Both the position numbers and the translations under genes were made by a program. From a virus, in IMG/VR virus record IMGVR_UViG_3300034190_002630: 64,000 bases of DNA; one strand, given 5' to 3'. The first letter of the stretch is position 1; each line of letters opens with the position of its first letter. A model generated the notes under the pieces. That model had not been told where the DNA came from. It searched no databases and was given only the letters and a program-made list of their open reading frames with translations. Shown here one piece after another: positions 4,704 to 54,256 of the stretch.

Positions 4704-4733
4704 TACTTATAACATATTGAGAGATTATTGTCA

Positions 4734-29695: not shown

Positions 29696-31004
29696 TTTAG
29701 GAATATCAGAAGGATTTCATGATGCAGGCGTAACTGTATTAGACGGACAAGAAATTAAATACGCATCTCATAGTGAAAGATATAGTAGAAAGAAAGGTGA
29801 TAAATGGATTCATCCAAAACAAATGAAAATAGGTTATCACAATATCGCATATTACGAAAAACCATTTTGGAAAAACACTAGAAGATTTTATGCAAATCAA
29901 TCACTCCAATGGCCAAGAAGAAAATATGACTACTATTTTAAACATCATCAATCACATGCTGCGGCAGGATATTTTACTGCACCATTTCATAATTGCAATA
30001 TTATTGTTGTAGATGCTATTGGTGAATGGGATACTGTTTCGATATGGGATAATATGAAAAAAATTAAGTCATTTAAATATCCATATTCATTAGGATTATT
30101 ATATTCAGCAATTACGCATAGACTTGGTTTGAAACCAAACGAGGATGAATATATCACAATGGGAATGGCTGCATATGGTGAACCTAAATATGATTTAGAA
30201 TATCTTTTGCAAAAGAACAATCATTGGGGTGTAGGAAATTTGTTACCGAATGCACGTGATGAAGATTTGGCCGCATCGATTCAAAATCTTTATGAATCAA
30301 AACTTTTAGAACTGTTGAAATATACGACAAAAAATAATTTGATATTAATGGGTGGATGTGCTTTAAATTGTGTTGCAAACAGTAAGATACCAGATCGATA
30401 TAATATATGGATAATGCCATCACCAGGTGATGCAGGTTCTTCTCTTGGTGCGGCTGCATTGATTAATAAAGTAAGATTAAATTGGAAACATCCATATCTC
30501 GGCCATAACATTGATAGAACTATAAATCCAAAAGAAGTTGTTAGACATTTATTAGAACACAAATATTGTGGGATTGCAAATGGACGTGCTGAGTTTGGAC
30601 CAAGAGCATTAGGAAATCGTTCACTAATTGCTGATCCTAGATATCCTATAAAAGACACAATAAATCAAATTAAAAGACGACAAAAATATCGTCCTTTTGC
30701 ACCCATGATATTAGAAGAACACTTTGACAAATATTTCAAAGGAAGAAAGAATAGATATATGCAATTTGTATCAAAAGCACTACATGATTATAAGTCTGTT
30801 ACGCATGTTGATGGCACTGCCCGTGTACAAGTCGTAGAAAGATCAAATCCGTCTGTAGCCCGCCTTATATTGGAAGAATGGTATGAAAAAACAGGGTGTC
30901 CTATGTTATTGAATACATCCTTGAATATAAAAGGTCAACCTATAGTTAATACATGGGATGATGCAATAGATTTTCAGAAAGAATATAATGTCAAAGTCTT
31001 CTAA
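29688..31004 (+). CDS. O-carbamoyltransferase (CmcH/NodU/TobZ family)
   Basis: FHDAG, ERYSRKK, HHQSHAA, DAIGE, GGCALN, EFGPRALGNRS, RPFAP, HVDGTARVQ, LNTSLN. Confidence 0.93.
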   Translation: MVNLGISEGFHDAGVTVLDGQEIKYASHSERYSRKKGDKWIHPKQMKIGYHNIAYYEKPFWKNTRRFYANQSLQWPRRKYDYYFKHHQSHAAAGYFTAPFHNCNIIVVDAIGEWDTVSIWDNMKKIKSFKYPYSLGLLYSAITHRLGLKPNEDEYITMGMAAYGEPKYDLEYLLQKNNHWGVGNLLPNARDEDLAASIQNLYESKLLELLKYTTKNNLILMGGCALNCVANSKIPDRYNIWIMPSPGDAGSSLGAAALINKVRLNWKHPYLGHNIDRTINPKEVVRHLLEHKYCGIANGRAEFGPRALGNRSLIADPRYPIKDTINQIKRRQKYRPFAPMILEEHFDKYFKGRKNRYMQFVSKALHDYKSVTHVDGTARVQVVERSNPSVARLILEEWYEKTGCPMLLNTSLNIKGQPIVNTWDDAIDFQKEYNVKVF

Positions 31005-37517: not shown

Positions 37518-38453
37518 ATGGATACGTTTCTGTGGGTTGAGAAGTATCGACCAAAAACTGTAAAAGATTGTATCTTACCTAAAAAACTAAAGGATACATT
37601 TCAAGAGTTTGTCAAAGACAAACATATTCCTAATTTAATTTTATCTGGTTCTGCTGGAACTGGCAAAACAACAATTGCAAAAGCAATGGTTGAACAGATT
37701 GGTTCTACTTGGATGATGATAAACGGATCAGAGGAATCTGGTATTGATGTTCTTAGAACTAAGATAAAAAACTTTGCATCAACTGTTTCATTAGAGGGTG
37801 GAAGAAAATATATCATATTAGATGAGGCAGATTATCTAAATCCACAATCAACACAACCTGCTCTTCGTGGTTTCATGGAAGAGTTTCACAAGAACTGTGG
37901 TTTTATTCTCACATGTAATTACAAAAATAGATTGATTGATCCTTTACAATCAAGATGTTCTAATATAGATTTTACAATTAGAAATGGTGAAAGAGTAAAA
38001 CTTGCAGATAAATTTTACAAAAGAGTTCTTGATATTCTGAAGGATGAAAAGATACAATTCAATCCACCTGCTGTTGCAGAATTAATCACTGCTCATTTTC
38101 CCGATTGGCGAAGAGTTTTAAATGAATTACAAAGATATTCTGCGTCTGGTCAAATAGATGCAGGTATATTAATTAATATTAGTAATGAAAACATAAAAGA
38201 ACTAATGAGTTTTGTTAAAAAGAAGGAGTTTACAAATGTTCGTAAGTGGATTGTTAATAATCTTGATAATGATGCCAATAGGATTTTTAGAACGATCTAT
38301 GATTCTCTCTATGATACTATCGACCACTCTACTATCCCACATGCGGTGGTAATACTTGGTGATTATCAGTACAAGTCTGCCTTTGTTGCAGATCAAGAAA
38401 TAAATCTTTTGGCATGTATGACTGAGTTGATGTCACAGGTAAAGTTCAAATGA
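37518..38453 (+). CDS. gp44: Clamp loader large subunit gp44
   Basis: [29 protein letters not shown]. Confidence 0.96.
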   Translation: MDTFLWVEKYRPKTVKDCILPKKLKDTFQEFVKDKHIPNLILSGSAGTGKTTIAKAMVEQIGSTWMMINGSEESGIDVLRTKIKNFASTVSLEGGRKYIILDEADYLNPQSTQPALRGFMEEFHKNCGFILTCNYKNRLIDPLQSRCSNIDFTIRNGERVKLADKFYKRVLDILKDEKIQFNPPAVAELITAHFPDWRRVLNELQRYSASGQIDAGILINISNENIKELMSFVKKKEFTNVRKWIVNNLDNDANRIFRTIYDSLYDTIDHSTIPHAVVILGDYQYKSAFVADQEINLLACMTELMSQVKFK

Positions 38454-39073
38454 ACAAAGAATATGAATCAGTAGATAAGTTTGAAAAAACAATAGCAGAT
38501 TTTTTTGGTGCTCCATATGCAGTTGCCACGGATTGTTGCACGAATGCATTAGAACTTTCTATCAGAATTACAGACTATGCAAATATTAAAGTGCCTGTGC
38601 ATACTTACGTTTCAGTTCCTTACATGCTAATGAAAAATGGTTGGCAGTTTACATTCACTGATGAGAAGTGGAAAGGTTATCATTATCTAACTGATCAAGT
38701 TATAGACGCAGCTGTTTATTGGAAAAAAAACGGATACATACCTGGTACTTTAATGTGTCTTAGTTTTTTTAAACGTAAACATTTATCGACTGATAGAGGT
38801 GGAATAATTTTATTGGATGACAAAGATAAATATGAAGACTTAATCAGATTAGTTTATGATGGTAGAAATAGAAGTGATACACCATATAATAAACAAAAGT
38901 GTGGCATGGGTTATCATTATTACATGACATCTGATAAAGCAAATTTAGGATTACAAAATTTTGAGAAAGTGAAAGATAAAAAACCTATAGAGAAAAATTG
39001 GGATTGGTATACACCAGTTAATCAATACTCTACGGTATTTGGTAATGAAGACATTATTTTTAGTTCAGAGTAA
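38450..39073 (+). CDS. Short DegT/DnrJ/EryC1/StrS PLP-dependent sugar aminotransferase
   Basis: FFGAPYAVATDCCTNAL, VIDAA, CLSFFKRKHL..GG, GYHYYM; lacks the usual C-terminal domain. Confidence 0.75.
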   Translation: MNKEYESVDKFEKTIADFFGAPYAVATDCCTNALELSIRITDYANIKVPVHTYVSVPYMLMKNGWQFTFTDEKWKGYHYLTDQVIDAAVYWKKNGYIPGTLMCLSFFKRKHLSTDRGGIILLDDKDKYEDLIRLVYDGRNRSDTPYNKQKCGMGYHYYMTSDKANLGLQNFEKVKDKKPIEKNWDWYTPVNQYSTVFGNEDIIFSSE

Positions 39074-40088
39074 TACTGGGTATGGTCATATCAATAGAGT
39101 AAAATCATTTTGTGATCATATCAATGAAAATTTAATTATTACAAAACCTGTTCTAGGTCACGACACTGAGTTTTTTGATAAGTGGCATAATGACTTGTTT
39201 GTAAAATATGTTGAGTATAACCCAGACGTGATTGTTACTGAGGGTTTTCCTTTTGGAAGATATGGTTGGCATTCACATTTCAATAAAAATTTAAGAAGAC
39301 ACAAAGGTATCATGGATATCTTAGATCATGCAAAAAACAAAAAGATATATTCTTTAGAGAGAGATATACCATGGATTAGACCAAGTGAAAATTGGTTTCA
39401 TAGTGACATACTAAATGAATATTATGACGGCATAATTTTTCATACTGATAATAATTTTATTGATCCAAAAGAATTTTTACATAATCAAATTATAGATGTT
39501 CCAATAATTAGTTCTTCATATGTCACTAAACCATTTCAATATAATACTCATAGAAATGGATATTTAGTTTCTGGTGGTGATTGGTATCCACATATAGAAA
39601 AATATTACAATGTGGCATTAGATGTAAGGAAAAGAATTGGTGGAGATTGGACATTTATCGTTGGTGATAAAACACCAAATAAATTATTAGATAGATTACA
39701 AAAAGAAAATGTAAATATTGTATCAAGACCAGACACAAATGGTTACAGAGTTTTACTTGCATCTCATGAATTATCGATAAGTCAATTTGGTGCGATGTCA
39801 TTTTTAGATATAAATATCACAAAAACACCTGCGATTATGATCCCAAATGACTTAACATCAAATGATGTATATGATAGTAATGGTGTAGTAATTGATAAAG
39901 AAGAAAATTATAGAGCAAAAAGATATGAACAACTCGGTGGTGGGAAAGTAATATCAATTGATGATGTCACAGTTGACTCTTTGACAGATTCAATTTATAA
40001 AGTTGTTCACTGTAAACCCACCACTTTTGATATGAATGGAGCGAAGTTTGTTAAAGAATTTTTCAACGGAACAAATACAGTCCATTAA
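39045..40088 (+). CDS. GT-B fold glycosyltransferase
   Basis: GYGHINR, PDVIVTEGFPFGR, RDI, VSGG, SISQFG. Confidence 0.75.
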   Translation: MKTLFLVQSNTGYGHINRVKSFCDHINENLIITKPVLGHDTEFFDKWHNDLFVKYVEYNPDVIVTEGFPFGRYGWHSHFNKNLRRHKGIMDILDHAKNKKIYSLERDIPWIRPSENWFHSDILNEYYDGIIFHTDNNFIDPKEFLHNQIIDVPIISSSYVTKPFQYNTHRNGYLVSGGDWYPHIEKYYNVALDVRKRIGGDWTFIVGDKTPNKLLDRLQKENVNIVSRPDTNGYRVLLASHELSISQFGAMSFLDINITKTPAIMIPNDLTSNDVYDSNGVVIDKEENYRAKRYEQLGGGKVISIDDVTVDSLTDSIYKVVHCKPTTFDMNGAKFVKEFFNGTNTVH

Positions 40089-41079
40089 AGAGTTTGGATC
40101 ACACATGGACGCAGCCATAAAAGGTGAATATCACTATCCACACACAATAGTTTTTGTACCTGGTATATCTTGCATGTACAAATGCACTTTTTGTGGTCGA
40201 AACTATGATGCAAAATTTGAAAAACAAGATAAACATTATGAAGTTTATAGAGATGTCATATATCAAAACAAAGGAAGAGGACAAATAAACATTGGTGGTG
40301 GTCTTGAACCCATGACAAGTCCATATTTGAATCAGATATGTAAAGACTTGCATGACGTTGGTATGAAATCAAGAATGATAACAAATGGATTTATGTTAAC
40401 ACAAAATTACATAAAAAAGAATCCTTATGTTGCAAATTTAGATACTTTGAGAATATCTTTATATGGAATTGATGAAGAGGAGTATAATTCAGTATCTAGA
40501 AATAAAAAAGGTTATCAGGTAGTTAAAAACAATTTAAAATTATTAGACAGAAAAGTAAAACTTAATTATGTTGTATTACCACAAAATGTTGAAAAGATAG
40601 CAAAAATTTTAGATTACATAGATGACATTGGTGGTATAGACGAATTAAGTTTAAGAGAAGATTTTTCATTTCAGTATGAAATAAATGATCGAAATAAGTT
40701 TCAAGATATTCTAAATGAATTTGATATATTAGCAAAACAACGTGGTGTCAAAGTTCATTATGGATATGCGATGTATGATTTACTAAGAGGAAGAAAAAGT
40801 AAATTAATTAAATGTGATTATTTACATTTAGATAAAAAACAATCACCACAAACTAAAATATATCTTGATCCAAACGGTGATTTGTATTATTATAGTGAGG
40901 CGGCATTTTTAGATCGAGAAGGTAGTGAACGTCACATTCTAGGTAATACATGGAGGTCATCAATTGATGATGCACTAAAAGGTATGAAAGAAATAGAACC
41001 ACGTAAAGATGATATAAAGTTCATGGATACTTTAACTCATCTCATAGAATATTATAAATGGAGTGTTCGTAATGTATGA
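40036..41079 (+). CDS. DesII-like radical SAM enzyme (TDP-amino-sugar ammonia-lyase/dehydrogenase family)
   Basis: YP....PG.SCMYKCTFCGR, GGLEPMT, TNGF, LRISLYG, LREDFS match motifs I recall for DesII. Confidence 0.7.
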   Translation: MERSLLKNFSTEQIQSIKEFGSHMDAAIKGEYHYPHTIVFVPGISCMYKCTFCGRNYDAKFEKQDKHYEVYRDVIYQNKGRGQINIGGGLEPMTSPYLNQICKDLHDVGMKSRMITNGFMLTQNYIKKNPYVANLDTLRISLYGIDEEEYNSVSRNKKGYQVVKNNLKLLDRKVKLNYVVLPQNVEKIAKILDYIDDIGGIDELSLREDFSFQYEINDRNKFQDILNEFDILAKQRGVKVHYGYAMYDLLRGRKSKLIKCDYLHLDKKQSPQTKIYLDPNGDLYYYSEAAFLDREGSERHILGNTWRSSIDDALKGMKEIEPRKDDIKFMDTLTHLIEYYKWSVRNV

Positions 41080-41467
41080 ATTGAAAGAATATCTTAACTC
41101 TATAAATTATCAAAAAAATAATTTAATGGAAAGTGATGACGTTATGTGGGAAAAAAAGTACCCTGCATATGTTGTTAATAAGTGTTTAGCACCATTTGGT
41201 GATACGATTATGTTAATAAATGAAATGAATAGATTACATCATTTAGATAACAAACTACAATATGATTTCTTACTAAATAGTCTAAGAACTCGAAAGAGAT
41301 TTGCATCGTGGATGAAGTCAAGCAAATCTAAGGATATAGAGTGTGTAAAAGAGTATTATGGTTATAGTAATGAGAAATCCAAGTCTGCTCTAAGCATACT
41401 TAACGATGAACAAATAAAAATGATAAAGGAAAAATTGAATAAAGGCGGACAACATGGAAAACGTTAG
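41072..41467 (+). CDS. gp62: Clamp loader small subunit gp62
   Basis: YLNSIN, YVVNKCL, NEMN, QYDFLLNSLR.RKRF, KEYYGYS. Confidence 0.92.
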   Translation: MYELKEYLNSINYQKNNLMESDDVMWEKKYPAYVVNKCLAPFGDTIMLINEMNRLHHLDNKLQYDFLLNSLRTRKRFASWMKSSKSKDIECVKEYYGYSNEKSKSALSILNDEQIKMIKEKLNKGGQHGKR

Positions 41468-41867
41468 TTTTAATAAAGACAATATGCTTGAAGTGACTCT
41501 TAAAGAACCTGATGATTTTTTAAAGGTTAGAGAGACACTATCTAGAATCGGTGTGGCTTCAAGAAAAGAAAAAAAATTATATCAGTCTTGTCATATTCTT
41601 CACAAACAAGGTAAGTATTACATTGTTCACTTCAAAGAACTATTTGCACTTGATGGTAAAGAAACAAACTTAACAGAGAATGATATAGGAAGAAGAAACA
41701 GAATTGCTAGTCTATTGAAAGATTGGGGTTTGATTAATATCAGTAGTGAAGTACAAAACATGTCACCACTTAGTCAAATCAAAATTATAAGTTTCAAAGA
41801 AAAGTCTGAATGGACTTTAGAAACAAAATATAATATTGGAAAGACTAAAGATGAGAACAGTATATGA
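41454..41867 (+). CDS. regA: Translational repressor RegA
   Basis: PDDFLKVRETLSRIG, LYQSCHILHKQGKYYIVHFKELF. Confidence 0.97.
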   Translation: MENVSFNKDNMLEVTLKEPDDFLKVRETLSRIGVASRKEKKLYQSCHILHKQGKYYIVHFKELFALDGKETNLTENDIGRRNRIASLLKDWGLINISSEVQNMSPLSQIKIISFKEKSEWTLETKYNIGKTKDENSI

Positions 41868-43032
41868 TGAATGGACAAGGTTACAAAAAGTAATCATTGG
41901 TCGATCATTTGATCTAAGTAATTTTAATATAGATTATAAAAATAAAATATTATTTAATTATGATAAGACAATATCAGAAAGACATCAACACTTTTCAAAT
42001 ATAGAATATGACGGTAATAGAACTACAACTGATAGTTTACTAGATTTAGTTGAGGGTAATTTATCAGGTTTAAAAAAAATACATGATGAAACTAATGAAG
42101 ACTTAGATGTATTAGCAGACATATGTAAACAGTTTGGTACGTTTGTTGTAAGACCAGATATATTATATCCAATAGAAACTGAGTGGCGTCATCCCATGCA
42201 AGTTAGAGATACGATTGGTAAAATAGGTGATACAGTCTTTGAGGTTTACACTTCATCTTGGGATAGGATGTATGAAAATCTAAACTGTAGAAATATTTTG
42301 ATAGATGAATTTGAAGAGGGTGCTAGATATATTTCGATGCCATTTCCCATATATGAAAGAAAACCAACAAATACTATAGATGATATTGATATAAAAAATG
42401 AGATATCCAATAAAGAAATACAATCATATGATAATCAAGGACAAATATTAGGTGATACAGCTGCATTTATGAAATGTGGAAAACATATTTTTCATACTCA
42501 TTCAAATCCAAAAACAAAACTAAAAAAACAACATTCTCATATTAGTATGACTAATAATGGTAGAGAGTGGTGGAAGAGAGAGTTTCCAAGACATGAATTT
42601 GTGGAAATGAACGCATATGGTCACGTTGACGGAAAGATTTCTATTCTAAGACCAGGTTTAGTATTGGCATGGAATAAAGATCACATACCAGAGATTATGA
42701 AAGATTGGGATGTAATATTGATTGAAAATAAAGCAACATATTCTGGCAAACAAATAAAAGATTTATGTGAGGAAAGAGGTGTTAAAAATTATCCATGGCA
42801 CCATCTATTAGGTGTATCACAAGAAACAAGGTTTGATGCAAACTGTTTATCACTTGATGAAAATACAGTGATCACATCTGGTTATGATAAAGATTTATCA
42901 GATAAATTAAAAAAGTATAACATTGAAATGATACCTTGGGTTAATCGTTGGAACTTTCTTTGGTCTGGTGGTGCTCATTGTTGTTCTGTTGACTTGGCAA
43001 GAGAAGGAAAACTTATTGACTATTTTTCATAA
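41851..43032 (+). CDS. Amidinotransferase (glycine/inosamine-phosphate amidinotransferase family)
   Basis: EW..L..VIIGR, VRD, GHVDG...LRPGL, C-terminal GGAHC catalytic Cys. Confidence 0.8.
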   Translation: MRTVYDEWTRLQKVIIGRSFDLSNFNIDYKNKILFNYDKTISERHQHFSNIEYDGNRTTTDSLLDLVEGNLSGLKKIHDETNEDLDVLADICKQFGTFVVRPDILYPIETEWRHPMQVRDTIGKIGDTVFEVYTSSWDRMYENLNCRNILIDEFEEGARYISMPFPIYERKPTNTIDDIDIKNEISNKEIQSYDNQGQILGDTAAFMKCGKHIFHTHSNPKTKLKKQHSHISMTNNGREWWKREFPRHEFVEMNAYGHVDGKISILRPGLVLAWNKDHIPEIMKDWDVILIENKATYSGKQIKDLCEERGVKNYPWHHLLGVSQETRFDANCLSLDENTVITSGYDKDLSDKLKKYNIEMIPWVNRWNFLWSGGAHCCSVDLAREGKLIDYFS

Positions 43033-43044
43033 TTATGGTATAAT
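43016..43044 (+). promoter_or_regulatory. Near-consensus sigma70 promoter (gp43)
   Basis: TTGACT-17 nt-TATAAT with extended TGn; ATG begins 7 nt after the -10. Confidence 0.75.
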
Positions 43045-43050
43045 ATCCAC

Positions 43051-45525
43051 ATGAGGTTTTATACAAACATTTCTCAATGGGGAAATAATTTATTATTACG
43101 TGAAGTCATAGATGGTAAGAGAGTAAATCGAAAAGTAAAATATTCGCCAACTCTGTATTGTCCTGTGATGCGTGAGACAAATTTTAAAACTTTAGAAGGT
43201 AAGTATGTTACGCCTATAAAACATCAAACAATGAGAGATGCCAAAGAGTGGGTTGAACAATATAAAGAACAACCACATTTATTATATGGTAATACGCAAT
43301 ATCAATATTCTTTTTTATATGAAAACTATCCAAACTTAGAATGGTCATTAGATGATGTATTGATCGCAACGATTGATATTGAAGTTGCTTGTGAAAATGG
43401 TTTTCCTAATCCACAAGATGCTATTGAACCTTTACTTTCTATCACTGTAAAAAATCATGCTAATAAACAAATATTTGTTTGGGGTGTTGGTGAGTACAAA
43501 ACAACTCGACCAGACGTTGCTTATGTCAATTGTGAAAATGAAAAAGAACTTATCTATGAGTTTTTAAAGTTCTGGCAAATGAACCAACCTGATGTTATCA
43601 CTGGTTGGAATACAGAATTTTTTGACATACCATATCTTTGTAATAGAATAAAAAAACTTTGTGGTGAAGATGACTTAAAAAAATTATCACCATGGAAATC
43701 TGTTTCATCAAAAAACATTTACTCAATGGGTCGAAGTCACCAAGTTTGGGATATACAAGGTATCGCTGCTTTAGATTATTATGATTTGTATCGAAAGTTT
43801 ACATATACAAATCAAGAGTCATATCGTTTAGATCATATCGCATACGTAGAACTAGGTGAAAGAAAAGACGGAAATCCTTATGATACTTTTAGAGATTGGT
43901 ACACAAATGATTTTCAATCTTTCATTGACTATAATATAACAGATGTTGAGATTGTTGATAAACTTGAAGAGAAAATGAAACTTATCGACTTGTGTTTGAC
44001 AATGGCCTACGAGGCAAAGGTTAATTATACAGATGTTTTAGGATCAGTTAAGTATTGGGATATTTTAATACACAACTATTTAATGGATAAAGGTATTGTT
44101 GTTCCACAAAAAGTAGAAAGAGAAAAGTCTGAGAAGTATGAAGGTGCATATGTAAAAGATCCACAGACAGGTATGCATGAATGGGTATTGTCTTTTGATT
44201 TAAATTCACTATATCCACATTTAATTATGCAATATAATATTTCACCTGAAACAATGAAAAGTGAACAGACAGTTCCTAATATGTCGGTTGATAAACTATT
44301 AGATAAACAAATAGACACATCTGTTTTAAAAAACACAACTATGACACCAAATGGTGCTTTATTTCGCACTGACAAAAAAGGATTCTTGCCTGAGATGATG
44401 CAAAAAATGTATGATGATAGAGTTAGATATAAAAAGGCAATGTTAGAGGCAAAACAAAATCTTGTTAACACAAAAGATAAAAAGTATGAAAAACAAATTT
44501 CTACGTTTAATAATATACAAATGGCAAAAAAGATTGCACTTAACTCAGCATATGGTGCTATTGGAAACAATTGGTTTAGATATTATTCACACACAATGGC
44601 AGAAGCGATTACTACATCTGGTCAATTATCTATTCGTTGGATTGAAAAAAAGATAAACAGTTATATGAATGGATTACTAAAAACTAAAGATAAAGATTAT
44701 GTTATTGCATCTGACACTGACTCTGTTTATATTACATTTGATGAACTAATTAAAAAACTTAATCCAAAATATCCTATTGACTTCCTTGATACAATTGCAA
44801 AAGAAAAGGTTGAACCTTTCATTGATCAATCATATCAAGAACTTGCAAACTATCTACATGCATATGAACAAAAGATGCAAATGAAAAGAGAAGTGATTGC
44901 AGATAAAGGTATTTGGACTGCAAAGAAAAGATATATTTTAAACGCATACGATATTGAAGGTGTTAGATATAAAGAACCAACATTGAAGATTATGGGTATC
45001 GAAGCAGTGAAGTCATCAACACCTGCACCATGTCGTGAAAAAATTAAAGAGGCTTTGAAGATTATGATGTCTGGTGATGAAAAAGAACTAAATAAATTTA
45101 TACAAAATTTTCGTGAAGAGTTTCTTACACTTCCACCAGAAGACATTGCATATCCAAGAAGTGTAAATGGTTTGAACAAATGGTCTGAGACACATACATT
45201 ATTTAAGAAAGGTGCTCCGATACATGTCAAAGGTGGAATATTATATAATCATTTAGTAAAGAAAAATAAACTTACAAGATACTATCCTTTAATACAAGAA
45301 GGTGATAAGATAAAGTTTTTATATTTAAAACTTCCTAACATTTATCAATCATCATCTATATCATTTATTACAACACTTCCAAAACAACTTGACTTTAAAG
45401 TTGATTGTGAATTACAGTTTGAAAAGTCATTTATTGAACCACTTAATTTTATTATTGAAAAGATTGGATGGTTTGTTGATAGAACTTATGGAACACAAGG
45501 AACACTAGAAGATTTTTTTGCATGA
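43051..45525 (+). CDS. gp43: Family B DNA polymerase gp43
   Basis: DIE exonuclease motif, FDLNSLYP, KIALNSAYG, SDTDS, KKRY. Confidence 0.98.
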   Translation: MRFYTNISQWGNNLLLREVIDGKRVNRKVKYSPTLYCPVMRETNFKTLEGKYVTPIKHQTMRDAKEWVEQYKEQPHLLYGNTQYQYSFLYENYPNLEWSLDDVLIATIDIEVACENGFPNPQDAIEPLLSITVKNHANKQIFVWGVGEYKTTRPDVAYVNCENEKELIYEFLKFWQMNQPDVITGWNTEFFDIPYLCNRIKKLCGEDDLKKLSPWKSVSSKNIYSMGRSHQVWDIQGIAALDYYDLYRKFTYTNQESYRLDHIAYVELGERKDGNPYDTFRDWYTNDFQSFIDYNITDVEIVDKLEEKMKLIDLCLTMAYEAKVNYTDVLGSVKYWDILIHNYLMDKGIVVPQKVEREKSEKYEGAYVKDPQTGMHEWVLSFDLNSLYPHLIMQYNISPETMKSEQTVPNMSVDKLLDKQIDTSVLKNTTMTPNGALFRTDKKGFLPEMMQKMYDDRVRYKKAMLEAKQNLVNTKDKKYEKQISTFNNIQMAKKIALNSAYGAIGNNWFRYYSHTMAEAITTSGQLSIRWIEKKINSYMNGLLKTKDKDYVIASDTDSVYITFDELIKKLNPKYPIDFLDTIAKEKVEPFIDQSYQELANYLHAYEQKMQMKREVIADKGIWTAKKRYILNAYDIEGVRYKEPTLKIMGIEAVKSSTPAPCREKIKEALKIMMSGDEKELNKFIQNFREEFLTLPPEDIAYPRSVNGLNKWSETHTLFKKGAPIHVKGGILYNHLVKKNKLTRYYPLIQEGDKIKFLYLKLPNIYQSSSISFITTLPKQLDFKVDCELQFEKSFIEPLNFIIEKIGWFVDRTYGTQGTLEDFFA

Positions 45526-46343
45526 TACACAAATTACTAGAAACAATAATAACAAAGGAGTCACAAAATGAAACTGAAGTTGCTATTCTCTTATCTGGCG
45601 GCGTTGACAGTAACACTTGCTTATTTACTTCTAACCGTCTCGGTTTAAAAGTACATGGATATTCTTTTTATATAAAAGATAATCCTACTTACGACTCACT
45701 AAAAGCACAAGAGGTATGTGAGAAGTTTGGATTTAATTTTACAAGTATTGAGGTGCCGACTGAAAATTTAGTCGAGGACTTTAAAACGTTGGCACACAAA
45801 TATAGTTGTAAAAAGAAAGTTCAGTTTGAATGCACTTGGCCATTCATGTACATGTATCCTAAGATAAAAGAGAAAGTTATTATATCTGGTGTTGCCGCAG
45901 ACGGACATTATGGTCTAAGTAAAAAAGCAATGATACACTTCAAACACACAAAACAAAAGTTTGATAAGTTTAGAACAGATTATTTTTCATCTGATAATCC
46001 AGCAGGTGTCAGACAACTTGAAATGTTAAGTAAAGAATATGATAAAATACTGATTGCACCCTATTTGAATAAAGATGTATTTAATTATTTTATACAGTTT
46101 GATTGGGATCAGATTAATAAACCATATGAAAAACATTTAATCAGACAACATTTTCATGAGTTTGATGAACTTAAACTTAAAAAACATCTTAATTTACAAC
46201 TTGTGGCAGAAATACCAACTATATTTGAGAATCTTCTTGACAATAAAGAGATAAACATATATGATAGGAAAAGAATTATGGATGTGTGTCGTGACTGGTC
46301 AAAAATAGTTGACAGTAAAGGCACTTTGGAAAACTTTATATGA
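45522..46343 (+). CDS. Asparagine-synthase-like N-type ATP pyrophosphatase (amide ligase), no glutaminase domain
   Basis: LLSGGVDS PP-loop, SG.AADG..G, APYL, EKHLIR. Confidence 0.75.
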   Translation: MIHKLLETIITKESQNETEVAILLSGGVDSNTCLFTSNRLGLKVHGYSFYIKDNPTYDSLKAQEVCEKFGFNFTSIEVPTENLVEDFKTLAHKYSCKKKVQFECTWPFMYMYPKIKEKVIISGVAADGHYGLSKKAMIHFKHTKQKFDKFRTDYFSSDNPAGVRQLEMLSKEYDKILIAPYLNKDVFNYFIQFDWDQINKPYEKHLIRQHFHEFDELKLKKHLNLQLVAEIPTIFENLLDNKEINIYDRKRIMDVCRDWSKIVDSKGTLENFI

Positions 46344-47476
46344 AATACAAACCCTACTTAATGAAAGACGTATTAGACGGAGAGGCACAAGAAAAGTTTC
46401 GTGTTATATCTACTTTCGCAGGTGGTGGTGGAAGTTCTACAGGTTATCGTCTTGCAGGTGGAAAAATACTTGCAATAAATGAGTTTGTTGAAGAAGCAAG
46501 AAATACTTACAGAGATAATTATCCAAACACACCTATTCTTGATGGTGATATCAAAGAACTAGAGGGAAAAGATTTTTTAGAGATTGCAAATATAAAAGAA
46601 GGTGAACTTGAATTATTAGACGGATCGCCTCCATGTTCAGCATTTAGTATGTGTGGAACATTGGCAAGAGAAGGAACAGTTCATAGTGACGGATTTGGTA
46701 AAACTAAATCTTACTCAGACGGAAAGATAGTTACGAATATTGAAGACTTATTCTTTGAATTTTTAAGAGTCGCAGATAAGATTAGACCAAAGACTATCAT
46801 CGCAGAGAATGTTGAAGGTCTTACAGTTGGAGAAGCAAAACAATATTTTAATAAAATACAAAATACATTTGAGGATATTGGATATCAAGTAGTTGCAAAA
46901 GTACATGATTGTTCACAGTTTGGAGTTCCACAAAGAAGACGAAGAGTTTTCTTTATGGCAGTTAGAGATGACATTATGGATCAAGTTGGTTTGAATTTTA
47001 TGACTCTATCATCAATATTTCCAAAAGAAAATAAAACAATTACTACTTTACAAGGTGCATTTGATGATTTAGATTATGATCAAGATGAAGTTGAAATGCT
47101 TACTACAAAATGGAAAGAGACAGCATACTATAAACAAACATGCGTATTAATGCCAAGAAACCCAGATAAAGTAATTACAGGAACAGACTATCATCCAAAA
47201 GGATGGCATTTTAATTTAAAGATTGCATCTGAGTTTCAACCTTCACCAACAATTACAGCAATGGGTGCTACAGAAAAAACTGCTGGAGTGTGTCATTGGG
47301 AAGAAGACAGAAAATTTACTTTAGGTGAATTAAAAAGAGTGACATCATTACCTGATGATTTTAAGTTAACAGGAAAATGGGCACAAAGAGCAGAACGATG
47401 TGGACGTATGGTGCCATCATTAATGATGAAAGCACTTGCAGAATCCATGTACAATAATGTATTAAGGAATATATAA
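46340..47476 (+). CDS. C5-cytosine DNA methyltransferase-family enzyme, probable carboxymethyltransferase
   Basis: FAGGGG (I), GSPPC (IV), ENV (VI), PQRRRR (VIII), motif X CGRMVP instead of GN(A/S)VP. Confidence 0.85.
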   Translation: MKYKPYLMKDVLDGEAQEKFRVISTFAGGGGSSTGYRLAGGKILAINEFVEEARNTYRDNYPNTPILDGDIKELEGKDFLEIANIKEGELELLDGSPPCSAFSMCGTLAREGTVHSDGFGKTKSYSDGKIVTNIEDLFFEFLRVADKIRPKTIIAENVEGLTVGEAKQYFNKIQNTFEDIGYQVVAKVHDCSQFGVPQRRRRVFFMAVRDDIMDQVGLNFMTLSSIFPKENKTITTLQGAFDDLDYDQDEVEMLTTKWKETAYYKQTCVLMPRNPDKVITGTDYHPKGWHFNLKIASEFQPSPTITAMGATEKTAGVCHWEEDRKFTLGELKRVTSLPDDFKLTGKWAQRAERCGRMVPSLMMKALAESMYNNVLRNI

Positions 47477-48183
47477 TGAACGATTTTACTTTTGCACATA
47501 GAGAAGAAGGATTTGACAATCATATTGATCAATCTATTCGAGGTTATAGAGATTTACTCAACGATGTAGTTTCTTTTTCAAGATACTTCGTTGAAGAACA
47601 CACCACAGTCTTAGACATAGGTTGTTCTACAGGAAAACTAACAAAACGAATTATGCAAGAAAATGTAAAACACAAACCATTTGTTTGTTATGAGGGTGTT
47701 GAGTATGCTGAAGGATTTAAGGAAGACTTAGATAAAAGACTAAGAGAATTAAATTCGATGTTTCCCGATATGGATAATTTAGTTAGTTTTCTACAAAAAG
47801 ACATTAGAGAATACAGATGGCGACCAGAAGTTAACTCTTTTGTTACATCAATTTTTACTTTACAATTTATGCCAAAAAAAGACAGAGCAGATTTGTTAAG
47901 AGAAATATATCATAGTTTAATACCTGGTGGTGCATTTGTATTTTCTGAAAAAGTCTTTTCTGAGAATGCACATATTCAAGACATGATGACTTTCATGTAC
48001 TATGATCACAAAAGAGAACACTTTGATGACAAAGATATTCTTGATAAAGAAAAGACACTAAGACACATGTTGAAACCTAACACATGGCCAGAATTGAAAG
48101 ATCATTTAGAAAAAGCAGGTTTCATAGACGTACAAGTGTTTTGGCGTAATCACAATTTTATAGGAGCAATAGCAATAAAATGA
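47476..48183 (+). CDS. cmoA: CmoA-like carboxy-SAM synthase
   Basis: [33 protein letters not shown] parallel bacterial CmoA motifs. Confidence 0.75.
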
Positions 48184-49208
48184 CAAACGATTTTCTTAAA
48201 GATATAATTAAAACAACTGGCAATGAATATGCTAATCTAGTGGAAGACGGAGTTGAATCAGGTGATGTTGAAAACTTTATCGACACAGGTTCTTATATTT
48301 TAAATGGAATGTTAAGTGGTTCACTCTATGGTGGACTTCCACAGAATAAAATAACAGCACTTGCAGGTGAATCTGCAACAGGTAAAACATTTTTTCTTAT
48401 GGGAATGTGTAAACACTTTTTAGATGCAAACCCAGATGGTGGTATTGTTTACTTTGAGTCAGAATCAGCAGTAACTAAAAAAATGATCGTTGATAGAGGT
48501 ATTGATGCATCAAGAATGGTAGTCTTACCTGTTTCAACTGTACAAGAGTTTAGAACACAGGCAATAAAAGTTCTTGATAGATACATGCAACAAGACGTTG
48601 ATATTAGAAGACCAATGTTTATGTGTCTTGATTCTCTAGGTATGTTATCTACAACTAAAGAAGTTGAAGATACAGCAGAGGGAAAAGAAACAAGAGATAT
48701 GACAAGAGCTCAAGTTCTAAAGGCTGCATTTAGAATACTTACACTTAAATTAGGAAAAGCAAAAGTTCCTATGGTCGTCACTAATCATACTTATGATGTT
48801 GTTGGATCATATATTCCAATGAAAGAAATGGGTGGTGGTAGTGGACTTAAATATGCCGCAAGTAGTATTGTTTATCTAAGTAAGAAAAAAGAAAAAGACG
48901 GAACTGAAGTTATTGGTAATATTATCAAAGCAAAAAATCAAAAGTCTAGACTAACAAAAGAAAACTCAGATTGTGAAGTTAGATTAACATACAATAAAGG
49001 ACTTGACAAATATTATGGATTACTTCAACTTGCTGAAAAATATGATATATTTAAAAAAGTATCTACGAAGTTTGAATTACCAGATGGTCGAAAAGTATTT
49101 GGTAAAACTATAAATGATGATCCACAGTCATACTTCACAGATGAAGTTATGGAAAAACTAGAAGAAGCGGCAATGAAAGAATACTCATATGGAGGCAACA
49201 ATGAGTGA
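48180..49208 (+). CDS. uvsX: RecA-like recombinase UvsX
   Basis: [33 protein letters not shown]. Confidence 0.95.
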
Positions 49209-49485
49209 AATGAAACAAGGTGATTTAGTATCTGTTTTAACGCCACATGGTGAATTTGTTGGAAGACTAGAAAAAAATGATGATACAGGCGTACATCTAA
49301 GTAATCCAAAAATGATGGTTAGCACTAAAGAAGGAAACATGGGTTTTGCAAGAGGTGTTTGTATGACAGGTGAGGAAAATCCTAAATCAATAATTTTTAG
49401 AAGTGGTGGTATTATATTAGTCACACCATCAAATCAAAATATAAACAAAGCATATACTGAAGTTGTAAGTGGATTAGTCACTTGA
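49201..49485 (+). CDS. Hypothetical Sm-like protein
   Basis: GDLVSV....GEFVGRL....NP; GGAGG SD. Confidence 0.55.
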
Positions 49486-49772
49486 CAAAAAAGAAATTCA
49501 GTTATATCGAATCAGCAAACTACCCAGATCAAACTTGCATAGGGATCAACGAGGGAGAGTTTGCTGGTGTAATTTATAAATATGGTAAAGTCACACCAAT
49601 AGAAAAAGATGATAAATTGACAATGCAATTTGAATATGATATTATAGAAAACAATGCAATACCTAGAGAAAAGTTTGGCGATAATTTTTTTAATTTAATA
49701 GGTGATATACTAATGGATATACTTGATGAAAAATATAACACTAACGATACTAGAAAACTTAGTAGCAAATGA
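49482..49772 (+). CDS. gp40-like protein
   Basis: G.F.GVIYKYGKV...FEYDI; T4 gp40 position between uvsX and gp41. Confidence 0.55.
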   Translation: MTKKKFSYIESANYPDQTCIGINEGEFAGVIYKYGKVTPIEKDDKLTMQFEYDIIENNAIPREKFGDNFFNLIGDILMDILDEKYNTNDTRKLSSK

Positions 49773-51114
49773 AGAATATGCTAGAAAAGTTTTACCATTT
49801 TTAAAAGAAGAATACTTTCAAGATAGAAATCAAAGAATCGTATTCAAAGAGATAAGTTCTTTTGCGTTAAAGTATTCAAAACTTCCAACAAAAACATCTT
49901 TGGAAGTTGAACTTGATAACCGAAAAGATTTAACTGAACAACAATATAAAGACATAACAAATATTGTTAGCAACTTTACAGATGATGCAGTTGATATAGA
50001 GTGGTTAACTGATACTACCGAAACATTCTGTAAAGATAGGGCAATCTATAATGCCGTCGTGGACGGAATCTCTATTATTGAAGGTAGAGATTCCACACGT
50101 AAACCTGATGCACTTCCAAGTCTTTTGACAGATGCATTATCTGTTTCTTTTGATAATAGAGTTGGTCATGATTATATAGAGGATGCGTCAGATAGATTTG
50201 AATACTTACATCGTAAAGAAGAACGTATTCCATTTGACTTAGAATATTTCAATAAAATTACAAAAGGTGGACTCCCACAAAAAACATTAAACATTGCACT
50301 TGCTGGAACTGGTGTCGGTAAATCTTTGTTCATGTGTCACATGGCTGCAAACTGCATAAATCAAGGACGAAATGTTCTTTACATTACACTAGAAATGGCA
50401 GAGGAAAGAATCGCAGAAAGAATAGATGCGAATCTTATGAATGTAAGTATGGATGCACTTCAAGATTTACCTAAACCAATGTACGATGATAAGATCGAAA
50501 AGATCATGAACAAAGTAAAAGGTAAACTGATTATAAAAGAATATCCAACAGCATCAGCACATACTAATCACTTTCGTTCATTACTACAAGAACTATCAAT
50601 CAAAAAAAGTTTTAAACCAGAGATAATCTTTGTAGATTACTTAAATATATGTGCTTCAAGTCGTTTTAAAGGGGGCTCAAACATTAATTCATATACACTA
50701 ATCAAATCTATCGCAGAGGAATTAAGGGGTCTAGCAGTCGAAAATAACGTGCCTATCGTGTCTGCTACACAGACAACTAGAGGTGGATATGTATCAACGG
50801 ATATAGGACTTGAGGATACATCTGAGTCATTTGGATTGCCTGCAACAGCAGATTTTATGTTTGCATTAATTACCTCTGAAGAATTAGAAGAACTTCAACA
50901 GATACAAGTTAAACAGTTGAAGAACAGATACAATGACCCAACAATCAACAAAAGATTTATTCTAGGAATTGACAGATCAAAAATGAAACTGTATGATGTA
51001 GAACTAAACGCTCAAGATGATCTAGTTGATAGTGGACAAGAAGACAAAATACCAGCACTAGATAAATCCACTAGTGGTGAAAGATATGCGAAATTTCAAG
51101 AAATTAAAGTCTAG
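49726..51114 (+). CDS. gp41: Replicative helicase gp41
   Basis: AGTGVGKS, ITLEM, FVDYLN, SATQTTR, SESFGLPATAD, KNRY. Confidence 0.96.
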   Translation: MKNITLTILENLVANEEYARKVLPFLKEEYFQDRNQRIVFKEISSFALKYSKLPTKTSLEVELDNRKDLTEQQYKDITNIVSNFTDDAVDIEWLTDTTETFCKDRAIYNAVVDGISIIEGRDSTRKPDALPSLLTDALSVSFDNRVGHDYIEDASDRFEYLHRKEERIPFDLEYFNKITKGGLPQKTLNIALAGTGVGKSLFMCHMAANCINQGRNVLYITLEMAEERIAERIDANLMNVSMDALQDLPKPMYDDKIEKIMNKVKGKLIIKEYPTASAHTNHFRSLLQELSIKKSFKPEIIFVDYLNICASSRFKGGSNINSYTLIKSIAEELRGLAVENNVPIVSATQTTRGGYVSTDIGLEDTSESFGLPATADFMFALITSEELEELQQIQVKQLKNRYNDPTINKRFILGIDRSKMKLYDVELNAQDDLVDSGQEDKIPALDKSTSGERYAKFQEIKV

Positions 51115-51301
51115 ATATTATGTGGATTTAGATGATTCTAATTTAAATTATCCATATAATTGTATAGATGTAAAGACAAATGAGGTGGTATGGAACTTTG
51201 AATTTGAGGAAGACGCTTTAGAATGGTGTAAGAATCAAAATAAAAAACCAACTTTTGGTAAGGATAGAATACCTCCACATATGAGGATGTATAAAACATA
51301 A
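51086..51301 (+). CDS. Hypothetical protein
   Basis: Short ORF overlapping the end of gp41. Confidence 0.45.
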   Translation: MRNFKKLKSRYYVDLDDSNLNYPYNCIDVKTNEVVWNFEFEEDALEWCKNQNKKPTFGKDRIPPHMRMYKT

Positions 51302-51327
51302 ATATATAAGTAATAAATGGGGGAGCG

Positions 51328-52653
51328 ATGTCTATTAGAAAGTTTGTACAACAAGTAAGACCTAGAGAACAATCATACAAACCTAAATTAATTATTGTTG
51401 AAGAACTTCTTGCTGAAGAAGAACTTCCAAAAGATATTATGAGGGGTTTAAGTTATGAGAAGTCTGAGAAACAATCTACATCTAAAAGAGATGTTTATAT
51501 TGTTCGTTCATCAGATAGAGAAACTGATAGAGATGAGATTCTAAGAAATCTTAATCAAGCAGGCATCAAGGCATCACTTGGTTCGAGTTCATCATCAGTT
51601 GATCCGATTGATGGCATATATCAAAATAGAAATTTTAGGATTTTTGTAAAACCACTATCTGGTGGCATGGGTGAAACTACTTTAAACTCTAGTATCACAG
51701 AGTTATTTCCCTTAATCGCATTCGAAAAAAAATATAATCCAAAAGATATCATATCATTTCATCAATTTTTACTAGGTGTTGATGTTTCAAAACTTAAATG
51801 TGTTGGCCCAAAAGATATTAAAGCCGCAGAGGAAACAATAAACAAAGCAGATACATCTACTAAGTTTAAAAAAAAAATGGCAAACGCTATTGGTGTTCTT
51901 AAATACATTCAACAAGAAGATAAAAATAAAAAGATAAAAAGTTTGTTTTGGGGATACAGAGCAAAGCCTGCAGGTGTGCCTAGTAAACACCCAGGTGATA
52001 TGTTTATTACTTACAACGATAACAAAATTTTAGGTGTTAGTTTAAAAGCAGGTGGAAAGAAAACATCTGAACCACAATTAAACACTTACATAGGAAAAGT
52101 TTTTGATGAGTTCAAAGATAGAAACTATGGTAAACTAATATCATTGGCATACAAATCAGTTTACTCTAAAATACCAGGTATGCCACCTGAGAGATCATTT
52201 ATTAGAGATAGAAAAACAAAAGATATATTAAGAGACTTTGATAAAAAAAATAATGCACAATATGAAAAATTTTACAATGATTACCTTGAGATTATGAGAC
52301 AAGGAATAGTCAAATTATTTAATAAAAATAAAGATAATACAATAAAATATATTAAAACAAATATACTTAGAGATGCACCTGATGTTCCTACTATAGTGAT
52401 TAAAGCAGTTGGTAGTGATTACGAAGAAGTGACAGATAAAGATCAACTAGGTGTTTTTTTACCACAAGTAAAATTTATTAGGGCAACATCATCTCAATCA
52501 TCTAAACAAAATTGGTTTATAGAATTGACATCTGGCCCAGATACTTTGAAAATGAGTATGTCTATTCGAACAAATAAATCAGGTCATGCTGGATTAAAAA
52601 AGTTAGGTCAATTTAGTCTTGCAGTAAAATACAATGGATTGTCAAAAAAATGA
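51328..52653 (+). CDS. Hypothetical protein with a PD-(D/E)xK-like nuclease motif
   Basis: KHPGDMFI...GVSLK; CATAAATA late-like element at 51297. Confidence 0.45.
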   Translation: MSIRKFVQQVRPREQSYKPKLIIVEELLAEEELPKDIMRGLSYEKSEKQSTSKRDVYIVRSSDRETDRDEILRNLNQAGIKASLGSSSSSVDPIDGIYQNRNFRIFVKPLSGGMGETTLNSSITELFPLIAFEKKYNPKDIISFHQFLLGVDVSKLKCVGPKDIKAAEETINKADTSTKFKKKMANAIGVLKYIQQEDKNKKIKSLFWGYRAKPAGVPSKHPGDMFITYNDNKILGVSLKAGGKKTSEPQLNTYIGKVFDEFKDRNYGKLISLAYKSVYSKIPGMPPERSFIRDRKTKDILRDFDKKNNAQYEKFYNDYLEIMRQGIVKLFNKNKDNTIKYIKTNILRDAPDVPTIVIKAVGSDYEEVTDKDQLGVFLPQVKFIRATSSQSSKQNWFIELTSGPDTLKMSMSIRTNKSGHAGLKKLGQFSLAVKYNGLSKK

Positions 52654-53882
52654 TACAATTTTTAGAGGAACAAGCAGGTAAGAATCTACATTTAGAACAT
52701 ATCGAAGATGAGATAATAAACTTTGGTGTGCCAGGTGGTCGAGCTGCTATAAACTTTTTAAGAAGTTTAAGAGATATGTTAGCAGGTGCGAGTAGATCAT
52801 CTGTTAATATGACTGTTAAATGGGATGGCGCTCCAGCGATATTCGCAGGTATAGACCCAGAGGACGGAAAGTTTTTTGTTGCAAAAAAGTCAGTATTCAA
52901 CGTAAATCCAAAGTTATATAAGACAAACGCAGAGATTGATGCAGATTTATCTGGTGAACTAAATGCAAAATTTAAAGTTGCACTAAAAGAGTTTGCTAAA
53001 CTAGGTATCAAAGGAGTTCTTCAAGGTGATCTTATGTTTACTAATGATCTTGAAACAGATACAATAGATGGTGAAAAAGTTTATACATTTCAACCAAACA
53101 CCATAGTTTACGCAGTGCCAGTTGATTCTGATCTAGGAAAGGTTATGAAAAAAGCAAAGATAGGAGTTGTATGGCATACAACATACTCTGGCAAATCACT
53201 ACCTGTTATGAAAGCATCTTTTGGTGCGAACATCAGTAATTTAAACAAGTCTGCTTCGGTTTGGATGGATGATGCAACATACAAAGACGTATCAGGCAAA
53301 GCCACATTCAATGCCAAAGAAACTGCACTGGTTACGAAAACATTATCAGATGTAGGAAAGACATTTCAAAAAATAAATGCACCAATGTTAAATAAATTCC
53401 TTAGACTTCAAGAATCAATGACTGGTGCGTTGGCAGGTGCATCATATAAAACTTACACAAATAGTAAAGTAAGGAGAGGGGAAAAAGTTAAGAATGCAAA
53501 CAGACATGCTGCAGAGTATGTCAATTGGGTACAAGATTCAGTAAAAAAACAGATTGATAAAGTAAAAACACCTGCTGGAAAGAAAAAATATGAGAATATA
53601 TCTAAACAATATACAATAGAAATCAAAAAACATGTAAGAAATTTGACTGAAGTCGTTAAATTTCAAAATTTTATGATTGATGCAAAAATGCAAATTGTTA
53701 GAAAACTAAATAGTGTAAAACAACTAACAGGCACATTTATTCGTACAGATAATGGATATAAAGTGGTTAACCCAGAGGGTTATGTTGCGATAGACAGAGT
53801 GTCTGGTAATGCTGTGAAATTAGTCGATAGAATGGAATTTTCGTTTAATAATTTCACTGCAATAAAGGCATGGGATAGATGA
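52650..53882 (+). CDS. Protein with ligase-type nucleotidyltransferase motifs (DUF6267-like)
   Basis: TVKWDG (KxDG), QGD, EGYV, VKLV. Confidence 0.55.
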   Translation: MIQFLEEQAGKNLHLEHIEDEIINFGVPGGRAAINFLRSLRDMLAGASRSSVNMTVKWDGAPAIFAGIDPEDGKFFVAKKSVFNVNPKLYKTNAEIDADLSGELNAKFKVALKEFAKLGIKGVLQGDLMFTNDLETDTIDGEKVYTFQPNTIVYAVPVDSDLGKVMKKAKIGVVWHTTYSGKSLPVMKASFGANISNLNKSASVWMDDATYKDVSGKATFNAKETALVTKTLSDVGKTFQKINAPMLNKFLRLQESMTGALAGASYKTYTNSKVRRGEKVKNANRHAAEYVNWVQDSVKKQIDKVKTPAGKKKYENISKQYTIEIKKHVRNLTEVVKFQNFMIDAKMQIVRKLNSVKQLTGTFIRTDNGYKVVNPEGYVAIDRVSGNAVKLVDRMEFSFNNFTAIKAWDR

Positions 53883-54256
53883 AAAACATAAAAGATTTAA
53901 TAAACGAACTCAAAGAACGAGTCGTATCAGTCGCTCAAAGAAGAAAGATCGGCAGAAGAATGGCTCGCCTCGCAAAAACATCAGCATTTAAAGCCAAAAG
54001 AGAAAGAGCAATGAAAAAGATTGCCACACCTATGAAACAACGTGTCAAGGCAACTAAGATGGCAAGAAAACTTATTCGTAAGAAATTTTATCCAAAATAT
54101 GATCAGATGGCACCAATGCAGAAGATGAAAATAGATCAAATTGTAAATGCAAAATATGGTGCTGCAATCGAAAAGATTGCAAAGAGAAATTTAATAAAAG
54201 TTAAAAAAGCAGAGATTGAAAAAGTCAAAAGAGCAAGACAGAAAAAAGATGATTAA
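53879..54256 (+). CDS. Very basic hypothetical protein
   Basis: Lys/Arg-rich, 125 aa. Confidence 0.55.
   Translation: MKNIKDLINELKERVVSVAQRRKIGRRMARLAKTSAFKAKRERAMKKIATPMKQRVKATKMARKLIRKKFYPKYDQMAPMQKMKIDQIVNAKYGAAIEKIAKRNLIKVKKAEIEKVKRARQKKDD

Follow-up and report, generated by a model that had tools for sequence, protein, structure and literature searches.

What is the function of the three genes that lie between the DNA polymerase gene (gp43) and the recombinase gene (uvsX) of an uncultured marine phage, in the interval where T4 keeps its own DNA-modification genes? The phage is represented by 64,000 nucleotides of DNA (IMG/VR virus record IMGVR_UViG_3300034190_002630), and we refer to this whole stretch as the window. 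The three genes encode homologues of an amide ligase (CmoY), a DNA cytosine C5-methyltransferase (CmoX) and a synthase of carboxy-S-adenosylmethionine (CmoA). An earlier note, made from the sequence alone, had proposed that together they build a hypermodified base: cytosine would be converted to 5-carboxymethylcytosine (5cxmC) with carboxy-S-adenosylmethionine (Cx-SAM) as donor, and the new carboxyl group would then be amidated. We conclude that the cassette is very probably an orthologue of the published CmoA-CmoX-CmoY hypermodification system and that it works as that system does in Synechococcus phage S-B43. The chemistry is already published, and the cassette adds one more example to a known system and is not a discovery.

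The cassette is orthologous to the S-B43 hypermodification genes

Yang et al. described the CmoA-CmoX-CmoY system in December 2025 (Nat Commun 17:281; PMC12783734). In S-B43, SpCmoA forms Cx-SAM from S-adenosylmethionine (SAM) and prephenate (kcat 2.33 per second). SpCmoX carboxymethylates cytosine at C5 in GC sites, and it accepts Cx-SAM only, not SAM. In its crystal structure (8YF3), Arg350, which replaces Asn304 of M.HhaI, contacts the carboxylate of the cofactor, and the R350N mutant is inactive. SpCmoY, a ligase that depends on ATP, attaches glycine, and the resulting 5-glycylcarboxymethylcytosine (5gcxmC) is present in virion DNA. The survey in the same paper covered 5,615 CmoX sequences and described ligase clusters with differing pocket residues (PMC12783734).

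Each protein of the window matches its S-B43 counterpart over the full length. CmoX is 58% identical to SpCmoX (447 bits), CmoA is 55% identical to the biochemically active SpCmoA, and CmoY is 46% identical to SpCmoY (248 bits, E 3e-87). The three genes are therefore orthologues of those of the characterised system. By our own calculation, the bit scores correspond to EFI-type alignment scores of about 129 for CmoX, above the network threshold of 70 in PMC12783734, and about 70 for CmoY, above the network threshold of 56 (the SpCmoY cluster was drawn at E 1e-56). By this measure, the two window proteins would fall, roughly judged, within the SpCmoX and SpCmoY clusters. As a cross-check, the S-B43 gene coordinates agree with the source data of the paper.

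The observations on which the earlier note was built stand. Its coordinates for three tightly coupled genes between gp43 and uvsX are exact, and the gene order in NC_000866 confirms that this is the DNA-modification interval of T4. Its description of the first gene as an SGGVDS N-type ATP pyrophosphatase that lacks a glutaminase domain, of the second as a C5-methyltransferase with PPC and ENV motifs and an Arg codon in a CGRMVP motif X, and of the third as CmoA-like is borne out by the alignments given below, including those to the C5-methyltransferase and CmoA profiles. The pathway that it proposed, from Cx-SAM through 5-carboxymethylcytosine to an amide, is supported by the experiments on the S-B43 orthologues (PMC12783734), and the related cyanophage system that it mentioned is the S-B43 system, so that the core chemistry has indeed been described.

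Gene coupling and selection

Three plus-strand open reading frames (ORFs) fill 45522-48183 between gp43 and uvsX (Table 1). The stop codon of one gene overlaps the start codon of the next at all four junctions. The overlap is ATGA at gp43/CmoY, CmoY/CmoX and CmoA/uvsX, and TAATG at CmoX/CmoA, where the start codon of CmoA begins on the final base of the CmoX stop codon.

The ratio of nonsynonymous to synonymous substitution rates (dN/dS) is low throughout the cassette. Compared with the related contigs L013, L017, L021 and L039, it is 0.06-0.22 across CmoY, CmoX and CmoA, and values for gp43 and uvsX are similar. For CmoX it is 0.06-0.13, and for CmoY about 0.10 against close relatives and 0.20 against the swapped allele of L039. 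The three ORFs are therefore real genes under purifying selection.

Table 1. Features in and around the cassette (positions are those of the window)
Feature	Position	Strand	Remarks
DegT-like short ORF (207 aa), GT28-type glycosyltransferase, radical SAM protein	38450-41079	+	inserted between gp44 and gp62
Amidinotransferase homologue, 398 aa	41836-43032	+	between regA and gp43; C-terminal GGAHC catalytic Cys motif
Sigma-70-like site, TTGACT-17-TG-TATAAT	43016-43044	+	11/12 match, extended -10; upstream of gp43
DNA polymerase B (family B, gp43)	43051-45525	+	left flank of cassette
CmoY-type AMP-forming amide ligase, 273 aa	45522-46343	+	asparagine-synthetase-like PP-loop domain alone; no glutaminase domain
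SGGVDS PP-loop of CmoY, residues 25-30	45594-45611	+	read in translation
CmoX-type DNA cytosine C5-carboxymethyltransferase, 378 aa	46340-47476	+	PF00145, 8YF3 matches
Cys99 codon (catalytic; SPPC, residues 96-99)	46634-46636	+	equivalent of SpCmoX Cys98; aligned to SPPC of 8YF3
Arg356 codon, motif X (CGRMVP)	47405-47407	+	predicted binder of Cx-SAM carboxylate
CmoA-type carboxy-SAM synthase, phage clade, 235 aa	47476-48183	+	TIGR00740, structure matches
CmoA helix E192-K-T-L-R196	48049-48063	+	Glu at E. coli Arg199 position; Arg one helical turn on
RecA/UvsX-like recombinase	48180-49208		right flank of cassette

A cytosine-C5 transferase with arginine in motif X

CmoX has the catalytic equipment of a cytosine-C5 transferase. 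It matches the C5 DNA methylase family PF00145 over its full length (E 2e-51), with the motifs FAGGGG, SPPC (Cys99), ENV (Glu156) and QRRRR, and it matches the structure of SpCmoX with bound Cx-SAM (8YF3) with an E value of 4.7e-140. We compared 30 homologues, taken from the window, S-B43, S-CRM01, Melnitz and IMG/VR loci. The SPPC motif (S96-P97-P98-C99) is invariant in all 30, as are E156 of ENV, the cytosine-contacting residues R200 and R202 of motif VIII, and QxRxR.

The residue that distinguishes CmoX from an ordinary methyltransferase is Arg356. It aligns with Arg350 of SpCmoX in 8YF3 and, in direct alignments, with the motif X Asn of DNMT1 (GNAVP) and of a fungal DNMT (GNSV). Arg occupies this position in 29 of the 30 homologues, the exception being the methyltransferase of phage Melnitz, which has Leu.

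These residues bear on whether the middle gene could be an orphan C5-methyltransferase that makes ordinary 5-methylcytosine, with the CmoA homologue serving tRNA modification (uridine-5-oxyacetic acid, cmo5U) or depletion of SAM and the ligase being unrelated. PF00145 and TIGR00675 both classify CmoX as a plain C5 DNA methylase, and the classical role of CmoA is in tRNA modification. However, Arg stands in place of the motif X Asn, and wild-type SpCmoX uses Cx-SAM only (PMC12783734). There are no tRNA genes in the 64-kb window, and the 42 window ORFs scanned with Pfam gave no CmoB-like (Methyltransf_9) match. The three genes are also found together and coupled in 22 related contigs. We consider this explanation highly improbable.

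Relatives of the cassette and its recombination

The cassette occurs in 24 IMG/VR contigs, 22 of which have the gp43-to-uvsX layout of the window, including contigs L039 and L041. Counted by the ligase, there are 28 IMG/VR loci with a relative of CmoY, and 20 of these have the gp43-CmoY-CmoX-CmoA-uvsX arrangement with CmoY identities of 80-99%.

Comparison among these relatives reveals several exchanges. Relative to contig L025 (region 12665-12937), which is 98-100% identical elsewhere, nucleotide identity falls to 57-89% over 47100-48183, that is, over the 3' end of CmoX and all of CmoA. L025 also has a 266-bp insert between CmoA and uvsX that is absent from the window and that contains a short ORF (about 80 aa) with a hydrophobic product. 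Contig L017 (2503-3207) has a CmoA of the window type (96% identical), with a dS of 0.07 where the background has 0.5-1.1. In L039 (12052-14698) and L041 (12166-14948), CmoX is 91%, gp43 78%, CmoA 64% and CmoY 46% identical to the window. The patch in L025, the CmoA of L017 and the divergence of CmoY in L039 and L041 together indicate that the cassette is a recombination hot spot, and the cassette as it stands is a recombination mosaic.

A mosaic could be a passenger, either decaying or recently imported and without function, and the foreign allele at 47100-48183 is what such a passenger might look like. However, no reading frame is broken, the catalytic residues do not vary, the overlaps between genes are kept and dN/dS is 0.06-0.22. 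We find a passenger scarcely credible, and the selection analysis is our reason for excluding it.

The ligase and its amine

CmoY is a synthetase-type ligase. It matches Asn_synthase (PF00733; E 3.8e-12) over residues 3-129, which is the synthetase part only, and phrog_26038 (E 6.8e-34), with weaker PP-loop matches to QueC and MnmA. SpCmoY has the same architecture, a synthetase-type PP-loop domain that lacks a glutaminase domain. The S, G, G and D of the PP-loop are kept in all 25 CmoY relatives that cover the motif, and the PP-loop and a long conserved core are common to SpCmoY and more distant types.

CmoY also varies among the relatives of the cassette. There are at least four types with about 45-50% mutual identity, namely those of the window, L039, L026 and S-B43, and the four main types share SGGxDS, ECTxPF, ADG(H/Y)YGxSKKAxIHFKHTKE, NKPxQK and HLNLQL. 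It appears to be the ligase that is exchanged and diversifies, whereas CmoX is nearly constant.

The amine that CmoY couples might therefore not be glycine. The chemistry of CmoA and CmoX could be the same as in S-B43 while CmoY attaches another amino acid, ammonia or a polyamine, in which case the end base would not be 5gcxmC. The window CmoY is no closer to SpCmoY (46%) than to two other IMG/VR CmoY types (46-50%), the pairing of a 91% identical CmoX with a 46% identical CmoY in L039 and L041 points to swapping of ligase alleles, and ligase clusters with different pocket residues have been reported (PMC12783734). Against this, the core is strongly conserved across the four main types, and by our calculation the similarity of CmoY to SpCmoY exceeds the threshold of the cluster for glycine and alpha-amino acids. 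Ammonia derived from glutamine would not be the donor, since CmoY has no glutaminase domain. On balance a different amine seems possible but unlikely, and glycine is the probable partner. Given the 46% identity and the allele swapping, no other step of the pathway is less secure than this one.

The earlier note had called both the amine donor and the target site unknown. That statement can now be narrowed, in that glycine and GC are expected by homology.

The carboxy-SAM synthase

CmoA belongs to the family of carboxy-SAM synthases. It matches TIGR00740 (E 1.4e-31, 110 bits), phrog_4752 (E 1.5e-59) and, over the full length, the structures of the E. coli (4GEK; E 4e-22) and H. influenzae (1IM8; E 7e-21) enzymes. 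The residues of E. coli CmoA that bind SAM are Tyr39, Asp62, Gly64, Ser66, Asp89, Asp117, Asn132, Phe137 and Glu164 (PMC3663124). All but one have a retained counterpart in the window protein: Y24, D47, G49, S51, E76 (Asp to Glu), D109, F131 and E158. The equivalent of Asn132 is Ile126, and SpCmoA has Leu there.

Weighing the assignment

Several observations weigh against the view that the cassette works as in S-B43. Two of them concern CmoA. Its 110 bits lie below the NCBIfam equivalog cut-off for TIGR00740, which is 193.3 bits. In addition, E. coli CmoA uses Arg199 for a salt bridge with the carboxylate of the cofactor, and the window protein has Glu192 in its place, with Arg196 four residues on. 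The register of this helix is identical in the HMMER alignments to 4GEK and 1IM8, with high posterior probability, and E192 and R196 are each found in 23 of 24 phage CmoA homologues.

Both properties are shared with the enzyme whose activity has been demonstrated. In control searches, SpCmoA scored 115.6 bits against TIGR00740, and the alternative allele of L025 scored 104.6 bits. The active SpCmoA thus also falls below 193.3 bits, so that the equivalog cut-off excludes the entire phage clade, including its proven member. The corresponding helix of SpCmoA has the same E...R pattern (DKEKELRDML) in an enzyme with a kcat of 2.33 per second, and the missing Arg199 is therefore no argument against function. 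To judge from these alignments, the low score and the E...R helix are marks of the phage CmoA clade and no reason to doubt that CmoA functions.

The other points are more general. All of the chemistry was demonstrated on the S-B43 orthologues. CmoY is just 46% identical to the glycine ligase and is one of at least four roughly equidistant types that are exchanged among close relatives, and it may accordingly couple another amine. Sequence conservation in CmoX is lower in the variable (target-recognition) region than in the catalytic core, and GC specificity can therefore only be assumed. Finally, the supply of prephenate and the restriction systems to be evaded depend on the host.

Orthology, the conservation of the catalytic residues, the coupling of the genes and purifying selection are established in the window. 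We infer the target motif, the amine and the timing.

Proposed pathway

The cassette would act in three steps. In the first, CmoA would combine SAM with prephenate from the host to make carboxy-SAM. In the second, CmoX would flip a cytosine out of the duplex phage DNA and attack its C6 with Cys99, while Arg356 would hold the carboxylate of Cx-SAM, and the carboxymethyl group would be transferred to C5 to give 5-carboxymethylcytosine. This would take place after replication and, by homology with SpCmoX, most likely at GpC. In the third, CmoY would adenylate the new carboxyl group and couple an amine to it.

The composition of the window can be set beside this scheme. GpC is not avoided (rho 0.94), and about 15% of cytosines are in GpC context. 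Four-base palindromes that contain GC do not differ in avoidance from other palindromes in the window, a comparison that says nothing on the target.

Other dinucleotides and palindromes depart from expectation. CpG is strongly under-represented in the window (rho 0.56). CGCG occurs 0 times with about 19 expected and CCGG 3 times with about 14 expected, and GATC, GTAC and CATG are also below expectation.

Phage affiliation and genomic setting

The proteins outside the cassette place the phage. Its major capsid protein is 74% identical to those of Methylophilales phage Melnitz and Pelagibacter phage Mosig, 70% to that of HTVC008M and about 66% to those of cyanophages, and its gp43 is 63% identical to that of Melnitz and about 54% to those of cyanophages. 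The window phage, an uncultured marine T4-like phage, therefore belongs with the pelagimyophage/Melnitz group and not with the cyanophages.

The local gene order is gp45, gp44, (DegT, GT28, radical SAM), gp62, regA, (amidinotransferase), gp43, CmoY-CmoX-CmoA, uvsX, two small ORFs and gp41. The order in T4 is 43-imm.1-imm-42-beta-gt-segA-uvsX (NC_000866), so that the cassette stands where T4 has the genes from imm.1 to segA.

We looked for the three cassette genes in the related cultured phages. HTVC008M and Mosig have none of them, and in Melnitz we found no CmoA or CmoY. Melnitz (MZ577097, L003:4010-5227) has a C5-methyltransferase in the same slot, directly after gp43, that is 38% identical to CmoX and is followed by uncharacterised ORFs. 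Its motif X reads IGLMVAP, so that Leu stands at the position taken by Asn in ordinary enzymes and by Arg in CmoX.

The overlapping junctions and the absence of convincing internal signals suggest that the cassette is co-expressed with the replisome. A promoter and terminator scan of 41400-51400 found no excess of either signal, with 60 promoter-like sites against 53.5 +/- 7.8 in shuffled sequences and 2 terminators against 2.6. The best sigma-70-like site, near consensus and upstream of gp43, is a weak candidate for a promoter of the gp43-CmoY-CmoX-CmoA-uvsX unit, and we offer it as a lead only.

Neighbouring genes

The amidinotransferase homologue upstream of gp43 is a constant neighbour of the cassette. 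It matches HsvA (5WPI; E 1e-13), StrB1, AGAT and SxtG, has no Pfam match, and is present in every contig of the lineage that covers the site, with alleles that are 56-99% identical. The divergence of these alleles does not follow the CmoY type. Outside the lineage, phage homologues occur only in the Campylobacter CP220 group, where identity is 23%. A functional link between this gene and the cassette is of low probability, as it comes from shared synteny, which is not independent evidence.

Such a link would be part of a more elaborate scheme. In the lineage of the window, which is abundant in the sea, swapping of CmoY might put different amines on 5cxmC, with the window type using an amine other than glycine and the amidinotransferase extending or supplying that amine to give a guanidino base. 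We give little credence to this combination.

The DegT-like ORF, the GT28-type glycosyltransferase and the radical SAM protein between gp44 and gp62 were considered as an obligatory partner of the cassette. This was rejected, since contig L008 keeps CmoY-CmoX-CmoA (97% identity) and has no such trio between gp44 and gp62.

We list some other genes of the window for completeness. At 28754-31004 on the plus strand, the gene for a radical SAM/SPASM protein (313 aa) directly precedes that for a carbamoyltransferase of the NodU/CmcH type (438 aa; Carbam_trans_N, Carbam_trans_C). An NAD-dependent sugar epimerase/dehydratase and another radical SAM protein, at 4728-5528 and 8122-9012 on the plus strand, are encoded among genes for the neck and tail (T4 neck protein, gp15). 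The region downstream of the gp41 helicase gene encodes a DUF6267 protein (52650-53882, plus strand; E 7.5e-104) and a protein of 557 aa in which a cytidylyltransferase-like domain is weakly matched (54216-55889, plus strand).

Comparison with known systems

The closest known system is that of S-B43. Both have the same three enzyme families with the same signature residues, a CmoY that lacks a glutaminase domain, and tight coupling of the genes within a T4-like replication module. They differ in gene order and position, which is Y-X-A between gp43 and uvsX in the window and A-Y-X downstream of the primase-helicase gene in S-B43. They also differ in the phage that carries them, since the backbone of the window is of the pelagimyophage/Melnitz type whereas S-B43 is a cyanophage.

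An uncharacterised homologue is found in Synechococcus phage S-CRM01. Its CmoX and CmoA are 58% and 55% identical to those of the window, and the Arg of motif X is kept (GRMVP). However, the pair is ordered A-X, lies between gp62 and regA, and has no CmoY. This pair would be expected to stop at 5cxmC.

Two other systems resemble single steps of the pathway. In the engineered M.MpeI N374K, a basic residue at the position of the motif X Asn lets a C5-methyltransferase use Cx-SAM (cited in PMC12783734). The residue there is Lys and not Arg, the enzyme prefers CG over GC, and it has no dedicated Cx-SAM synthase or ligase. The bacterial CmoA/CmoB pathway to tRNA cmo5U (4GEK/4IWN; PMC3663124) shares with the window the CmoA fold and the residues that bind SAM. 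In the window, however, the acceptor enzyme is a homologue of DNA C5-methyltransferases and not CmoB, and its CmoA has Glu at the Arg199 position, with an Arg at +4, and Ile in place of Asn132.

T4 gene 42 and beta-gt, which serve hydroxymethylcytosine formation and glucosylation, occupy the same slot between gp43 and uvsX, and both systems presumably counter restriction through C5 of cytosine. The enzymes are unrelated, however. In T4, modification acts on the nucleotide pool ahead of replication and every C is replaced, whereas we propose that the window phage modifies the polymer after replication and at a limited set of motifs. Together with the shuffling of CmoY and CmoA alleles against a nearly constant CmoX, the shared slot suggests that T4-like replication modules hold a conserved slot for DNA modification, which in the present case diversifies at the ligase step.

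With the window, the full three-gene system, documented in cyanophages, is now also recorded in the pelagimyophage/Melnitz group, whose members infect streamlined marine heterotrophs. Among the cultured phages of this group, HTVC008M, Mosig and Melnitz, none carries the system. Restriction-modification systems are rare in SAR11 (PMC7029224), which raises the question of what selective benefit the cassette would bring if the host is SAR11. The different alleles of CmoY are, in addition, a practical source of natural ligase variants for making amide adducts on 5cxmC.

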